A stretch of DNA of 64,000 bases from Dehalococcoidia bacterium (GTDB lineage Bacteria > Chloroflexota > Dehalococcoidia > SZUA-161 > SpSt-899). The position numbers were made by a program, and so were the translations under genes. Below, in pieces: positions 30,058 to 50,689 of this stretch. Numbering within the stretch: position 1 is the stretch's first letter; every line of letters starts with the position of its first letter. The stretch is taken from assembly GCA_034434815.1 (NCBI GenBank), contig DAOTYO010000059.1:3082-67081 (forward strand). The letters are read 5' to 3'. The notes below the pieces were generated by a model. That model did not search any database and had not been told where the DNA came from. It saw nothing but the letters and a program-made list of their open reading frames with translations.

Positions 30058-30216
30058 ACACTGATTATATCAGAGTCTTGCCGCGGGGCCCGAGATCGCT
30101 TCTGTCGTTCTGTTTGGGATACCGTCACCTTTACCTTTGCTCTGGCCTTGTAGCGACCACGGAAGGAACCTTATCCCCTCGTCAAATTCGGGTACATATA
30201 CAAGCTCGTTTGGCGG

Positions 30217-30284
30217 ACTTAACGGCACGCGCTTCAGCCGCCGCGAAGCGAGCGGAGCGTGCCGGCTGGATGCGCTGGTTAGGC
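30217..30284 (-). mobile_element. Integron attC site (68 bp)
   Basis: Minus strand: R'' GCCTAAC, L''-side CATCCAGCCG, L'-side CGGCTGAAGC, R' GTTAAGT (RYYYAAC...GTTRRRY). The cassette gene stop lies inside R''. Confidence 0.85.
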
Positions 30285-30804
30285 AGTGGCGCTCACACTA
30301 TTGATGAAGCTGGCCACGGCCTGGCAGAAATCTTCCCAGTGGAGCATGTGTTTTCGCAGCGCCGACATTTTGAAGTTGTTCTGCTTCCCCCGCGGGAGAT
30401 ATTACCCATGACTGCACGGCGAGCCGCTTCAGAATCGATGAAGGCGTACCGGCGTGATTGATGGGAACACTTTGCGTCTGCGATCGTCCAGCGGAGGGGG
30501 CGGTCGAGAACCGTAGCCTCGTCCCCTCTGGCAAGGAGCGCATCCACCTGAGGCCCGGCTCCCTTCGCGAGTTGCCGATCCCCACACCTCCCATGCGCTG
30601 GCCGCCAAAAACCTTGACCTCGATCCATCTTACCGTGGGTCCACTCTCCGTGTCGATGAGAACCGCAATGTCGAAGCCGAACCTTGGGAGTATGACCGCT
30701 TTCTGTGCGTGGTTCTTCAGCGCAAGCTTCACGACCTCTCGGACTGCGGACTCGAACCGCTCCTCTGGATAGACATCTTTGGGCTCGTCCAAAGACATGG
30801 CCAT
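30279..30804 (-). pseudogene. Integron cassette gene, possible PD-(D/E)XK nuclease fold, two frameshifts
   Basis: RBS GGAGG. Three frame segments join into one protein: MAMSLDEPK...FDIAVLI...IEVK...GN / GPQVDALL...ISRG / KQNNFKMS...SATA*. Shifts near 30557 and at the C5 run 30387-30391. Confidence 0.7.
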
Positions 30805-30813
30805 TTCCATCAC

Positions 30814-30975
30814 CTCCTAATAAATTAGATCGATCCGCATTAGACGCGGGACTCTTGTTTTCTAACCGTATAAGCCTCGAAATATCGCCCCGAAGGCGCG
30901 GTAAGGTTGTTCTCCGTCGTCTCTTGATGCGGACTCGGCCATTTATCCGGGAATGTTATGCGGATCGGCATAAGA
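30814..30975 (-). mobile_element. Putative attI / integron control region downstream of intI
   Basis: TCTAAT-TT-ATTAGG at the cassette start (TTAGG complements the attC R''), 12-bp inverted repeat CGATCCGCAT(T/A)A, palindrome TTATGCGGATCGGCATAA. Confidence 0.55.
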
Positions 30976-30985
30976 GCCTTTTCCC

Positions 30986-31149
30986 CTATAACCCGTCCAC
31001 TGGACTACGCACACCAGAAGGCCCGCGGTTCAGGATATGGGGATGAATCATGGCGGTGCTCGTATCCTTGTGCCCCGTAATTCTTGCACGGCCCGAAGAT
31101 CATGGCCGCCTTCAAACAAATGGGTCGCAAAGGAATGCGGGGAGGTATG
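30986..31149 (-). pseudogene. intI: Integron integrase 3' fragment (dead)
   Basis: [24 protein letters not shown] / [29 protein letters not shown]. IntI-type C-terminus with a 1-nt deletion; catalytic Arg->Pro and Tyr->His. Confidence 0.8.
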
Positions 31150-31154
31150 ATAAG

Positions 31155-31227
31155 TGGAGCTGAGGAGATTCGAACTCCTGACCTCCTGCGTGCAAAGCAG
31201 GCGCTCTCCCAGCTAAGCTACAGCCCC
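31155..31227 (-). tRNA. tRNA-Ala(TGC); CCA not encoded
   Basis: GGGGCTGTAGCTTAGCTGGGAGAGCGCCTGCTTTGCACGCAGGAGGTCAGGAGTTCGAATCTCCTCAGCTCCA, G3:U70 pair; upstream TTTACA-N17-TAAAAT. Confidence 0.97.
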
Positions 31228-31343: not shown

Positions 31344-32054
31344 CTAGATCGCCAGCCCGTGCTCCCGGAGCAGCGCCCGATCGGCCAGGATCCGGGCGGT
31401 GGGGCCGTCGGCGGCGATGCGGCCCTGATCCAAGATGATGCACCGCTCGCACAGCGTTCCGATCACTTCGAGATCGTGAGAGGTGATGATCCGGGTCATG
31501 GGCAGACTCCGGATGAGTTCGATGAAGGCCCATTTGGCCCGCGGGTCGAGGTTGCTCGTAGGCTCGTCCACTACGAGGATCTCCGGGTCCATGGCGAGCA
31601 CGGTGGCGATGGCGATGCGTTTCTTCTCCCCGATGCTCAAATGATGCGGCGAACGTTTCTCGTATCCGTTCATTCCCACCGCTCCGAGCGCCCGTTTCAC
31701 TCGCGCCTCTGTTTCTTCGGTCGAACACCCCATGTTGATCGGCCCGAAGGCCACGTCATCGAACACCGTGGGCGAAAAGAGCTGATCATCGGGGTTCTGG
31801 AAGACAAGCCCCACCTTGCTCCGCACCCATTTGAGGTTCTTTTTCTCCACCGGAACGCCCAAGATCTTGACGGCGCCGTTGCGGCTCTCGAGGATGCCGT
31901 TCAAGTGGAGGAGCAATGTGGATTTGCCGGCCCCGTTCGGCCCGATGAGCGCCACCGTCTGACCGATGGGGATGGAAAGGGTGATGCCCTGAAGCGCCCA
32001 TTGGCCATCGGGATAGCGGAAGGAAAGATCCGTGAGTTCGACAGCGTGATCCAT
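31344..32054 (-). CDS. cbiO: ECF Co/Ni transporter ATPase
   Basis: GPNGAGKST, FQNPDDQ, LSIGEKKR, VVDEPT, HD. Confidence 0.9.
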   Translation of the reverse strand: MDHAVELTDLSFRYPDGQWALQGITLSIPIGQTVALIGPNGAGKSTLLLHLNGILESRNGAVKILGVPVEKKNLKWVRSKVGLVFQNPDDQLFSPTVFDDVAFGPINMGCSTEETEARVKRALGAVGMNGYEKRSPHHLSIGEKKRIAIATVLAMDPEILVVDEPTSNLDPRAKWAFIELIRSLPMTRIITSHDLEVIGTLCERCIILDQGRIAADGPTARILADRALLREHGLAI

Positions 32055-33887: not shown

Positions 33888-34098
33888 GCCCAAATGGGGG
33901 GCAATTGGAAAGAGGAGTGCAGAGGGGCATTCCCCTTTGGCCGGGGTTTGGGGTGACCCTAAAAAGAACCTTTGGTCGGGTTGGGTGGGATCGCCGATGC
34001 CGGATTTTCTGAGGGGAAGGGAAAGGGGATTGCGGGTCAAGTCCCGCCCGGGATGAGGGTAATAATTTGCTCCTCATGAGGGTGACGCTGTTTTTGGC
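33888..34098 (-). mobile_element. MITE copy H (divergent subfamily)
   Basis: Ends CCCAAATGGGGGGCAATTG / GACGCTGTTTTTGGC; perfect 5-bp TSD TTCGG at 33883-33887 and 34099-34103; colinear with the reverse complement of copy D. Confidence 0.8.
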
Positions 34099-34103
34099 TT
34101 CGG

Positions 34104-34144
34104 CCCGAAAGGAGCAATTGGGGGTAAGGGATTGCCGGGACCCG
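34104..34144 (+). repeat. MITE-type end plus 25-bp direct repeat (left of island)
   Basis: CCCGAAAGGAGCAATT (TIR-like) followed by GGGGGTAAGGGATTGCCGGGACCCG. Confidence 0.7.
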
Positions 34145-34194
34145 CTCAATTTATGTCGAAAGGACTTCTTAATGTGTTTGCTTGAGATAATTTA

Positions 34195-34215
34195 ATTATT
34201 CTGTTTTAGAATAAT
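34195..34215. promoter_or_regulatory. Perfect 8-5-8 inverted repeat (operator candidate)
   Basis: ATTATTCT-GTTTT-AGAATAAT in an AT-rich tract upstream of the promoter. Confidence 0.45.
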
Positions 34216-34246
34216 GATATTGTTATGCGGATTATTGAGATCTATA

Positions 34247-34275
34247 TTGACAAAACCGATTCAAGGAAATACGAT
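34247..34275 (+). promoter_or_regulatory. Sigma70-type promoter of island genes
   Basis: TTGACA-N17-TACGAT. Confidence 0.65.
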
Positions 34276-34444
34276 GAAGGAGTAATAATGGGTCATTTGA
34301 GAAGGAGGGTGTAGGGATTCTTCCCTGCCGGGGTTCAGAGTGTCTCCGAGTATAAACATCCCCAAGGTGTGGGGTTCCCGAAAGCCCGCGGAAAACGCTG
34401 CCATTTCGATATAACCAAATTCGAATTGAAAGGAGAATCAGAAC

Positions 34445-35110
34445 TTGAAAAAACTATCCATGCTCTACCGAAGAAGGCGGGTGCCTTTTCTCATCTGCTC
34501 GGGATTGATGCTTGCTGCTGTGATCGCGGGAATAACTACGGCGGCCATCGCTTTTGGGACTGAACCAACTCCCAAAGTGAATCTTTCCCCCAGTTGTACT
34601 CCCGAGACAAATTCTGAGAGAATCAGGGAATACGAACGGATCATGGCGGATTTCCAAGAGAAAACCACCGGAATGACCGACGAACAGAAACGTGCGGCGA
34701 TAGATGAACTGGACAGAGTGTTGGAAGAAAAGGGATTCATCAAGAAGTTCAGCCTGAAGGGCATGGAAACCCGGGGATCCCAGATCCTCATAGCTGGCCA
34801 AGTAGTCAAACTCCCTGCTGACGCCGAACTCAATGGTATGATTTCTTCTATAAATCCCGTCATAACCGATGGGCAAATATCGAGCGAAGCGAAATCCATT
34901 GTTCCGAGCCTGCCGGTACTGTGGATAACCCGAGGGAACTCGTACGTATGGATTGGGCTGGATTCCGGCGTGATCGTTTCGGGAATGATCTCTGCCGGCG
35001 AAGAGGGGGCCTTTGATTTTCTGAAGGAGTATTTCCCGGCTCAAGCCAGAGCTATTGATGCCCTGCCCATTCGAGATCCCGAAACACTCAAGCTCGAGGT
35101 GACGGAGTGA
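34445..35110 (+). CDS. Hypothetical membrane-anchored protein
   Basis: RBS AAAGGAG, TTG start, basic then hydrophobic N-terminus; GTGA coupling to the next gene. Confidence 0.7.
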   Translation: MKKLSMLYRRRRVPFLICSGLMLAAVIAGITTAAIAFGTEPTPKVNLSPSCTPETNSERIREYERIMADFQEKTTGMTDEQKRAAIDELDRVLEEKGFIKKFSLKGMETRGSQILIAGQVVKLPADAELNGMISSINPVITDGQISSEAKSIVPSLPVLWITRGNSYVWIGLDSGVIVSGMISAGEEGAFDFLKEYFPAQARAIDALPIRDPETLKLEVTE

Positions 35111-36212: not shown

Positions 36213-37127
36213 TCATATCCCTTGGCGATTCTGCCGCTCTTTGCTTCTGGGGTGTGCCTCCAGATACCGCCGGCGCATTTGCCCCTTGGTCACATGGGTG
36301 TAAACTTGCGTGCTGGAAAGATTGGCGTGCCCCAGAAGCTCTTGCACGACCCTGAGATCGGCGCCGCCGTCGAGCATGTGCGTAGCGAAGGTATGCCGCA
36401 GGGTGTGGGGATGGACCCGTTCGCTGAGGCCAACTTGCTGGGCGTATGCCTTGAGGAGGTACTGGATCCGCCGCTCGGCGATCCGCTCGCCGTATCGGTT
36501 CAGGAAAAGGGCCTTCGTCTTTCGGTTGCCTAGGAGCTTGGGTCTTCCGGTCTTCAAATATGCTTCCAACGCTGCGGCCGCGGGGGTGCCCATGAGAACC
36601 ATCCGCTCTTTTGATCCCTTTCCTCGGACCCGGATCTGCCGCGTGGCCACGTCCACTTGATTGGTGTCGAGGGAAACGATCTCGCTGAGCCTCAGTCCGG
36701 AGGCATAGAGCAACTCGAGCAAAGCGCGATCGCGAAGGCCGTAGGGGGTGGAGATATCCGGGGCTTCGATCAACGTGCGGATTTCATTTGCGGTCAGGAA
36801 ATCCGGAAGGCGTCTTTCACGTTTGGGACCGGATATTTTGCTCAGGGGGTCATCATGAATCAAGCCTTCATTGTTGAGAAACCGGAAGAAGGAGCGCAGG
36901 GCGCTCAGTTTGCGGGCCACGCTGGCCCGCACGATTCCGGAGTCCAGAAGCTCCCCCAAGTATTGGCGGACGTGCGTCGCTGAGACCTCTTCCAGTGATG
37001 GAACGCCGGTTCTCCGAAGGAAATCAAGAAAGCCGAGGACATCGGTGGAATAGTTTCTCACCGTGTAAGGGGAGAGATTGCGTTCCGTGCCCAGATGAAG
37101 GGTAAACTTCTCGAGAAACGCTTCCAT
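36213..37127 (-). CDS. xerC: Tyrosine recombinase XerC/D
   Basis: R(D)RALLELLYASGLR, GKGSKER, HPHTLRHTFATH, LLGH...TQVYT; dprA-topA-xerC synteny. Confidence 0.9.
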   Translation of the reverse strand: MEAFLEKFTLHLGTERNLSPYTVRNYSTDVLGFLDFLRRTGVPSLEEVSATHVRQYLGELLDSGIVRASVARKLSALRSFFRFLNNEGLIHDDPLSKISGPKRERRLPDFLTANEIRTLIEAPDISTPYGLRDRALLELLYASGLRLSEIVSLDTNQVDVATRQIRVRGKGSKERMVLMGTPAAAALEAYLKTGRPKLLGNRKTKALFLNRYGERIAERRIQYLLKAYAQQVGLSERVHPHTLRHTFATHMLDGGADLRVVQELLGHANLSSTQVYTHVTKGQMRRRYLEAHPRSKERQNRQGI

Positions 37128-45454: not shown

Positions 45455-46462
45455 ATGAGCGGAAAAGTACGGAAAAAGGCTCTGGCAATATTGAATGTCC
45501 TTCGATCTGCCGAAGGCCCTCTTCCCAGCGGGGAGATCGCCCGTGCCCTGCTTTCGCTCGGGCTCGAGGTCAGCGAGCGCACGGTTCGCTTCTATCTCCA
45601 ACAGATGGATCAGGAAGGTCTCACGGAGACGATCGGAAAACGCGGCCACAGGATCACTTCTCTGGGACTTAAGGAGATAGATAGCTCCGGCACCATTCAA
45701 CGGGTAGGGCTTCTTTCGGCAAAAATCGATCGGATGACTTATGCGATGGGCTTCGATCTCACCACGAAGTCGGGCACGGTGGTAGTGAATCTCACCTTGG
45801 TTGAGCCGAGGGCGCTTGCGGAACGAGCGGAGATGATCTGCAAGGTGTATTCGGAGGGATACGCGATGGGGCGTCTCCTTTCGCTTCTGGGCCCCGGCGA
45901 GCGGCTCGGCGACCTCGCCGTTCCGGAAGGCATGGTGGGGATCGCCACCGTGTGTTCCGTGACGCTCAATGGCGTGCTACTCAAACGGGGTATCCCCACC
46001 AACTCCCGCTTCGGCGGGCTTCTCGAGCTTCGGCAGAGGCTTCCCACGAGGTTTGTGGAGATCATCATGTATGAAGGGACGAGCATCGATCCGCTTGAGG
46101 TGTTCATCCGGAGCGGTATGACGGATTATCTGGGGGCGATCCGTTCGGGCGATGGGCGGATCGGGGCCAGCTTTCGGGAGTTTCCCGCGGAGAGCCGGGG
46201 CGTTGTGGAGGATCTGGCTCAGAGGCTCGAGCGGGTAGGGTTGGGGGGATTCATGGCGATCGGGAGGCCGAGTCAACCGCTTTTGGAGATCCCGGTGAGC
46301 GAGGGGAGAGTCGGGGCGATCGTCATCGGCGGCTTGAACCCCGTCGCCATCTTTGAAGAGACGGGGCTTCGGGTTCAATCGCGGGTCATGGCGGGGATCA
46401 TGGATTTCAATCGTCTGTTCGGGTATGAGGAGCTTCCCTCCCGGATCCGCTCCCTCATGTGA
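45455..46462 (+). CDS. nrpR: NrpR-family regulator, paralog b
   Basis: SERTVRFYL, ATVCSVTLNG, TSIDPLEVFI, IGGLNP. Confidence 0.88.
   Translation: MSGKVRKKALAILNVLRSAEGPLPSGEIARALLSLGLEVSERTVRFYLQQMDQEGLTETIGKRGHRITSLGLKEIDSSGTIQRVGLLSAKIDRMTYAMGFDLTTKSGTVVVNLTLVEPRALAERAEMICKVYSEGYAMGRLLSLLGPGERLGDLAVPEGMVGIATVCSVTLNGVLLKRGIPTNSRFGGLLELRQRLPTRFVEIIMYEGTSIDPLEVFIRSGMTDYLGAIRSGDGRIGASFREFPAESRGVVEDLAQRLERVGLGGFMAIGRPSQPLLEIPVSEGRVGAIVIGGLNPVAIFEETGLRVQSRVMAGIMDFNRLFGYEELPSRIRSLM

Positions 46463-49127: not shown

Positions 49128-50689
<1,562 letters not shown>

Follow-up and report, generated by a model that had tools for sequence, protein, structure and literature searches.

A probable remnant of a co-oriented chromosomal integron at the 3' end of a tRNA-Ala gene

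On the minus strand of a 64-kb stretch of DNA (the window, by which the whole stretch analysed is meant), the end of a tRNA-Ala gene runs almost directly into a fragment of a tyrosine recombinase, which is followed by a repeat-bearing region and by what resembles a single gene cassette. The locus raises the question of whether these pieces are the remains of an integron and, if so, how they came to lie against a tRNA gene and whether they can still take part in recombination. As set out below, the locus is very probably what is left of a chromosomal integron with a co-oriented ('inverted') integrase, no longer functional, in a host that probably belongs to the Chloroflexota.

Parts of the locus and their decay

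On the minus strand the order of the parts is cbiO, a promoter-like site, tRNA-Ala(TGC), the 3' end of intI, attI, a cassette and attC, as follows.

31344-32054, minus strand: cbiO, the upstream neighbour of tRNA-Ala
31154-31227, minus strand: intact tRNA-Ala(TGC), from ARAGORN and Rfam RF00005 (69.2 bits)
30986-31152, minus strand: 3' stub of intI, a pseudogene comprising the last ~55 codons (about residues 328-384 of full-length relatives), from translations, TIGR02249 and tblastn
30815-30985, minus strand: putative degenerate attI, from alignment with the regions after the intI stop in seven loci
30956-30973, minus strand: attI box 1, the 18-nt palindrome TTATGCCGATCCGCATAA, from the alignment and a pattern scan
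30866-30874, minus strand: attI middle half-site CTTATACGG, from the alignment
30832-30842, minus strand: attI box 2 TAATGCGGATC, from the alignment
30815-30821, minus strand: attI core ATTAGGA, where relatives have GTTRRRY
30223-30820, minus strand: 598-bp gene cassette that begins with TTAGGA and ends at the G of R', with the ribosome-binding site AGGAGG and a pseudogene of ~175 codons
30217-30284, minus strand: attC of 68 bp, from covariance model R1 and a register scan
30278-30284, minus strand: attC R'' GCCTAAC, read from the register
30217-30223, minus strand: attC R' GTTAAGT, read from the register

The original prediction was of a decayed integron with its integrase co-oriented with the cassette: tRNA-Ala, 5 bp, an IntI C-terminal fragment, a region of ~165 bp with inverted repeats, a cassette whose start TTAGG complements the R'' of its own attC, and a canonical 68-bp attC. 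All five elements were found where they had been placed, all on the minus strand, and the IntI-type stub, attI, cassette pseudogene and attC together agree with the reading as a decayed integron. Three further independent metagenome assemblies contain an identical sequence and a fourth matches it at 99.86% identity; the locus is therefore not an assembly artefact.

Directly after the tRNA, translations reveal the C-terminus of a tyrosine recombinase spread over three reading frames, with integrase similarity beginning at about 31152, 0-5 bp past the end of tRNA-Ala. Searches by tblastn with full-length IntI proteins (from loci L100, L108, L113 and L135) returned two segments in different frames, 31158-31072 and 31081-30983, corresponding to residues ~325-384 of ~384; a 1-nt deletion near 31076-31077 therefore breaks the frame of the stub. 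The peptide ends in LNRGPSGVRSPVDGL at a TAG stop codon (30986-30988), and the motif IHPHI is found where IYTHV is expected, the codon of the catalytic tyrosine now being CAT (His) at 31043-31045. When the frame-repaired fragment of 55 residues was used as the query in a profile search, the integron integrase model TIGR02249 gave 73 bits over profile positions 262-315 of 315, up to the end of the profile, a score that lies below the whole-protein cut-off of 265, the fragment being short. The XerD model gave 50 bits over profile positions 236-276 and the XerC model 45.5 bits, both alignments ending at residue 40-42; the gap in score arises because the last 13 residues, the tail LNRGPSGVRSPVDGL, are aligned by IntI models alone. 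The four full-length relatives used as tblastn queries, which come from metagenomes, score 427-470 bits on TIGR02249 and, judged by this profile, are bona fide IntI. By the same profile comparison the stub is assigned to the IntI type and not to the Xer or phage type, in keeping with the original prediction; the additional domain specific to IntI would fall in the deleted part. Apart from the stub, XerC is the sole tyrosine recombinase of the window. It lies at a distance of 5 kb (36213-37127, minus strand; 351 bits on TIGR02224), within the conserved dprA-topA-xerC arrangement, is 54% identical to the stub over 39 residues and does not have the IntI tail.

At the far end of the locus, the attC can be read in register as GCCTAAC-CA-GCGCAT-C-CAGCCG-G-...-CGGCTG-AAGCGC-GTGCC-GTTAAGT. 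After R'' there is a 2-nt spacer, a 6-bp stem, a C bulge, a second 6-bp stem and a G bulge, and 11 of the 12 pairs in the two stems are Watson-Crick pairs. A scan for this register (R'', 2 nt, 6-bp stem, bulge, 6-bp stem, bulge, the complementary 12-mer, a spacer of 2-8 nt and GTT) found 55 matches in 374 kb of integron loci, with ~4.5 expected, and one match in the window, the candidate attC itself, with 0.77 expected per shuffled window. The covariance model R1, which is not the published IntegronFinder model, was built from 22 natural attC sites (57-75 nt) in 15 loci of other integron arrays. Its seeds were picked by our own pairing rule, so that their pairing statistics are not independent evidence; their position in arrays next to intI genes is. 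With filters off, R1 matched 30217-30284 on the minus strand with 40.8 bits (E = 5.3e-7) over model positions 1-64 of 64, the only significant match in the 64-kb window, and the same site on the plus strand gave 10.7 bits. As a positive control, R1 found 74 sites in integron loci, with the arrays on one strand per locus, and non-seed attC sites of real arrays scored 25-50 bits. An Rfam scan of the window at gathering thresholds returned four tRNA matches only and none at attC.

Two further sites in the window were noted. Neither the runner-up for R1, at 49595-49636 (12.3 bits, E = 1.3), nor another strict RYYYAAC...GTTRRRY pair, at 45695-45806, reaches significance, and chance is the likeliest explanation of both. 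The strict-consensus scan (RYYYAAC...GTTRRRY) overlooked real attC sites of another locus, L006, in which R' is GTTAGCC, and an energy-filtered scan overlooked the attC of the window; they were replaced by the register scan and the covariance model. Unconstrained folding of 30210-30290 was no better than that of shuffles (z = -0.17 and +0.54 on the two strands), and it was dropped as a test of attC, the function of which rests on a specific register and not on minimum energy.

The attC has a poor central stem and at minimum energy folds into a competing hairpin. If the first bases of the cassette are used to complete R' (GTTAGGA, the state of the excised circle), the structure of minimum energy is the canonical fold, whose probability increases from 0.009 in the present context to 0.21, compared with 0.07-0.81 for real sites. 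The cassette start TTAGGA at 30820 complements R'' at six of seven positions, which is better than the present R' does. That the fold is restored by the cassette's own bases gives independent support for 30820 as the start of the cassette.

Behind the AGGAGG site, the cassette frame is broken. In tblastn the similarity falls into three segments, collinear but each in another frame (30807-30565, 30565-30389 and 30392-30303), and the gene is therefore a pseudogene, with frameshifts near 30565 and 30390 and with its ancestral stop codon, TAA at 30279-30281, inside R''. Once its frame is repaired, the product aligns over 95% of its length, at 40% identity, with a protein of 175 aa, P0002, which is its sole intact homologue among 5.8 billion proteins apart from copies of the window's own reading frame; as a family, these proteins are very rare. 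The gene of P0002 (L006 1472-1999) has canonical attC sites on either side and neighbours a ParE toxin cassette, and the gene family is therefore that of a genuine integron cassette. No Pfam or PDB match was found for either protein, and a single-sequence structure model of P0002 was unusable (pLDDT 35.8). By eye, a D...E-x-K pattern (FGFDIAV...WIEVK) reminiscent of PD-(D/E)xK nucleases can be read in P0002 and in the cassette protein (window 30303-30807).

The attI region and related integrons

The stop codon of the stub and the start of the cassette are 164 bp apart, and this region contains a perfect 10-nt inverted repeat (30831-30840 with 30958-30967) as well as the 18-nt palindrome of box 1, which occurs once in the 64-kb window against 0.03 expected. 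It was aligned with the regions that follow the intI stop in seven loci, from several phyla: the complete genomes of Methylomirabilis oxyfera (L089) and Prosthecochloris sp. ZM (L088), and five metagenome contigs (L090, L094, L097, L105 and L137). The window and the seven loci have a common layout, in which an 18-19-nt palindrome at the stop codon is followed ~95 nt further on by a half-site, then by a second box (at 131-133 nt from the first), an AT-rich spacer and GTTRRRY, at which the first cassette starts in the seven relatives. The same three-box layout is found in two loci with full-length intI (L113 and L158). Boxes 1 and 2 are spaced by 131 nt in the window and by 133 nt in L097 and L105; in the window 2 nt are absent from the spacer just upstream of the core, and the crossover triplet GTT has become ATT. 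As far as the alignment indicates, the 164-bp region is an attI, homologous to those of the relatives yet degenerate. A different box sequence, TTTATACAGTCTGTATAAA, is present in both boxes of L097 and L137, so the boxes co-vary between lineages. The conserved three-box layout of attI in co-oriented integrons looks real and may be undescribed.

Regarding the box sequences more widely, a TTATGCCGATCC type and a TTTATACAGTCTG type can be distinguished between lineages, both boxes changing together.

The orientation of the window locus, with the intI 3' end, attI, cassette and attC all on the minus strand, corresponds to the 'inverted integron-integrase group' described before (PMC4889954). Of ~27 related loci in which attC could be detected, 16 have intI and the array co-oriented, on the same strand with the array downstream (L088, L089, L090, L091, L094, L097, L099, L100, L108, L109, L126, L135, L136, L137, L141 and L158), and ~11 are divergent (L096, L101, L110, L130, L131, L146, L152, L156, L160, L166 and L167). 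The intI reading frame is full length in five of the co-oriented loci. Another locus, L143, had the same co-oriented layout in another scan; its attC lies below the covariance-model threshold and it is not among the 16. The original prediction had set the co-oriented layout, known in Treponema denticola, against a divergent intI in most integrons; given the published group and the frequency found here, the layout is not a rarity confined to Treponema. Integrons are known in Chloroflexi (PMC4889954; PMC3607928).

In several respects the locus resembles co-oriented chromosomal integrons such as that of Treponema denticola, in which intI is transcribed towards attI and the cassettes on one strand; here, too, attI directly follows the intI stop and attC has the canonical shape (PMC3607928, PMC4889954). 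It differs from them in that intI is reduced to 55 decayed codons, that one cassette is left and that the host is probably a member of the Chloroflexota; the nearest relatives found here come from environmental metagenomes, Methylomirabilis and Prosthecochloris, not from spirochaetes. As in the remnant of Treponema phagedenis, where cassettes and attC remain as a static array after loss of the integrase (PMC3607928), the array has outlived its integrase; unlike that remnant, the window locus is cut off on its 5' side exactly at a tRNA gene, and its attI and cassette gene have decayed too.

The order of parts, stub, attI, first cassette and attC, is also that of L088, L089 and L137. There is a likeness of form with M. 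oxyfera and Prosthecochloris sp. ZM, whose stubs are 5'-truncated (61-75 residues) and are followed by a three-box attI, a first cassette and attC; their stubs keep the consensus including the catalytic Tyr, their attI keeps the GTT core, and neither lies beside a tRNA. In M. oxyfera the truncation is due to an IS3-family element, whereas in the window the stub abuts the tRNA.

For these two loci the details are as follows. In M. oxyfera (FP565575; L089 4854-6270) the stub has 61 aligned residues with the consensus kept and is followed by an intact attI, the first cassette and attC; the IS3-family element lies directly upstream of the stub, with a further piece of intI (residues 69-104) on its far side. 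In Prosthecochloris sp. ZM (L088 6001-6225) the stub has 75 aligned residues, again with the consensus kept and followed by an intact attI, the first cassette and attC.

Truncated stubs of ~55-77 residues recur in the window, L088, L089, L097, L105 and many short database proteins, and the best 120 protein matches to the fragment are all 54-97 aa long. A mobile stub element was considered as the source of these short proteins and rejected on the basis of full-length frames, differing breakpoints and saturated third positions. A search at the DNA level mostly returned full-length intI reading frames. In an exhaustive protein search only ~12 of the best 150 cluster representatives have at least 300 aa, a count that is ambiguous given the many partial metagenome genes. 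The breakpoints of the stubs differ between loci (308-328, 269, 206 and 117), and from stub to stub the third codon positions are saturated, at 0.26-0.55 identity, against 79-94% identity of the proteins, from which it follows that the stubs are independent truncations of diverged, once functional genes. By these comparisons they are not copies of one mobile element, and no sign of DNA-level constraint is seen within the stub.

Two short proteins of another make-up, P0061 and P0121, consist of a HicA-like or MazF/PemK-like toxin N-terminus joined to the last ~58 IntI residues at RHSFATHLL. Such a make-up suggests that a deletion fused a toxin-antitoxin cassette gene to the 3' end of intI.

The junction with tRNA-Ala

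The upstream boundary of the remnant is the 3' end of tRNA-Ala, the acceptor stem of which, read from the sequence, has a G3:U70 pair; a promoter-like site lies ahead of the gene at 31269-31241. The simplest explanation of the fusion between this tRNA and intI would be a microhomology-mediated deletion. In the ancestral integron the minus-strand order would have been intI, attI and one or more cassettes, each ending in attC. A deletion would then have taken the first ~85% of intI, together with whatever lay between intI and the upstream tRNA-Ala, and would have joined the tRNA 3' end to intI codon ~328, possibly through a short microhomology, CCAC. In the equivalent codons the intI of L105 reads GCGCGCCAC, which is similar to the tRNA end CAGCTCCAC; the microhomology is only 4-6 nt long, so that it could be due to chance. 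Neutral decay would have followed: the stub would have gained its frameshift and lost the catalytic tyrosine, the attI crossover G would have changed to A with loss of 2 nt beside it, the single remaining cassette gene would have gained two frameshifts, and attC would have kept its canonical register and lost the stability of its central stem. A search of 185,579 species genomes with CbiO found no close relative of this genome, the best match being at 68%, in Dehalococcoidia and other Chloroflexota bins, a result that probably places the genome in the Chloroflexota, and no tRNA-Ala after cbiO in the relatives found by CbiO synteny; because no close relative was found, the ancestral arrangement and the deletion are not directly observed.

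The original prediction explained the junction otherwise, by an integron-bearing island whose site-specific integration into the tRNA-Ala 3' end was followed by the loss of nearly all of the island. The 3' ends of tRNA genes are classic integration sites of islands, the remnant begins 0-5 bp from the tRNA end, and in L005, a contig of a 93.5%-identical relative, the similarity breaks off at the tRNA. However, the 20-nt tRNA 3' end has no second copy in the 64-kb window at up to three mismatches, no island-type integrase is found in the window, where XerC is the only other tyrosine recombinase, and there is no compositional step across the remnant, the GC content of 0.53-0.61 matching that of the flanks. 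No tRNA lies near any of 20 related integron loci, and L005, in which a hybrid tRNA runs into 23S rRNA, is silent on the empty site. An island origin is unlikely, and the island model is neither needed nor supported; deletion at the tRNA remains the preferred explanation.

The contig L005 (1.4 kb) carries cbiO and tRNA-Ala joined to the 5' end of 23S rRNA (L005 820-1392), and its similarity to the window ends exactly at the tRNA. Since the acceptor stem of its tRNA has a C5-T68 mismatch, this tRNA is a hybrid of two tRNA-Ala(TGC) genes, and the contig is either an assembly chimera or the product of a real recombination between two tRNA-Ala copies. It was considered as an alternative, empty-site state of the locus and rejected as such.

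Elsewhere in the window, at 33950-34700, the GC content is 0.44-0.49 compared with ~0.58-0.63 in the adjoining genes. This dip lies between cbiM and an ORF of 221 aa (34445-35110) without a Pfam match, and in L003 an extra gene of 233 aa is called near the region. It may be a small foreign insert.

Present state and meaning of the remnant

Compared with a complete integron, the locus retains a cassette with its attC, as seen from the covariance model and from the canonical register and bulges. It retains a degenerate attI, of homologous architecture yet with the core ATTAGGA in place of GTTRRRY and with 2 nt missing. A consensus scan, which is not decisive for a cassette promoter Pc, found no sigma-70-like site on the minus strand in the stub or attI, the nearest being the tRNA promoter at 31269-31241. 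An intact integrase gene is lacking: ~55 codons are left, with a frameshift and a Tyr-to-His change, and in the 64-kb window tblastn with full-length IntI revealed no intact intI. The remnant is not autonomous, and its state suggests that it is now recombinationally inert or nearly so.

The original prediction had held that the site could still be used by an IntI in trans, and the locus could accordingly be seen as an integrase-less landing pad at which an IntI encoded elsewhere inserts or excises cassettes at attC or attI. The part of this that stands is the attC register: register and bulge positions are canonical, and the score is one that real sites also reach. Most of attI boxes 1 and 2 is preserved, and recognition of attC by non-cognate IntI has been described (PMC2095811; archaeal attC assays in 10.1101/2022.02.06.479319). 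Against this, attI has a mutated crossover G and a spacing shorter by 2 nt, the canonical attC fold has a probability of only 0.009 in the present context, and no intact intI and no other attC are found in 64 kb; moreover, the cassette gene and the stub have decayed and have not been replaced, which suggests no recent turnover. With attC weak, the attI core ATT and the cassette a pseudogene, use in trans is doubtful and a working landing pad improbable.

A broader form of the same idea is that the window holds a decayed copy of a cross-phylum co-oriented class, in which the stub and the three-box attI of ~165 bp would be maintained, either as a landing pad lacking its own integrase or as a read-through promoter region, for cassettes brought in by an IntI acting in trans. 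Truncated stubs recur in this class; the case for selective retention is weak, because third positions are saturated, the copy in the window is decaying and the search with the stub is biased towards stubs. It is quite unlikely that this idea is correct.

The locus may also be compared with cassettes that lie apart from any integrase. Having one attC and no intact intI within the 64-kb window, it resembles CALIN and SALIN elements and is a SALIN in IntegronFinder terms (10.1101/2022.09.11.507474). Lone attC sites that lack an integrase are frequent, and insertion at attG is one way in which they can arise (10.1101/2022.09.11.507474); the cassette could on this ground be an isolated one, inserted by an integrase at a secondary genomic site and not left by a resident integron. 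However, insertion at a random site would not carry along attI and the 3' end of intI, which here precede the cassette in the order and spacing of the relatives' resident integrons, and such an origin is very unlikely. That the stub is the leftover of a phage- or Xer-type integrase and the hairpin a terminator or chance palindrome is hardly tenable: the box II region is common to all tyrosine recombinases, Xer models reach 45-50 bits and the fold z-score of the hairpin is not significant, but the last 13 residues are aligned by IntI models alone, no T-run follows the hairpin, and attI, the cassette homologue and the attC model match all indicate an integron.

The remnant of a resident integron, to which the evidence points, is real, yet it is an ordinary kind of fossil, and the locus has no bearing on resistance or virulence. 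Its value lies in being a clean, fully resolved case of the death of a chromosomal integron, through 5' truncation of intI and then point decay of attI, the cassette gene and attC. The origin of most CALIN and SALIN elements is unclear, with no intI pseudogene left; 95% of CALINs are without a recognisable one nearby (PMC4889954). The window locus differs from most of them in that the stub and attI are kept, so that descent from a resident integron is documented and its decay is directly visible. The three-box layout could aid the annotation of attI, which current tools do not predict outside known classes. With this locus, a probable lineage of the Chloroflexota is added to the hosts of co-oriented integrons.
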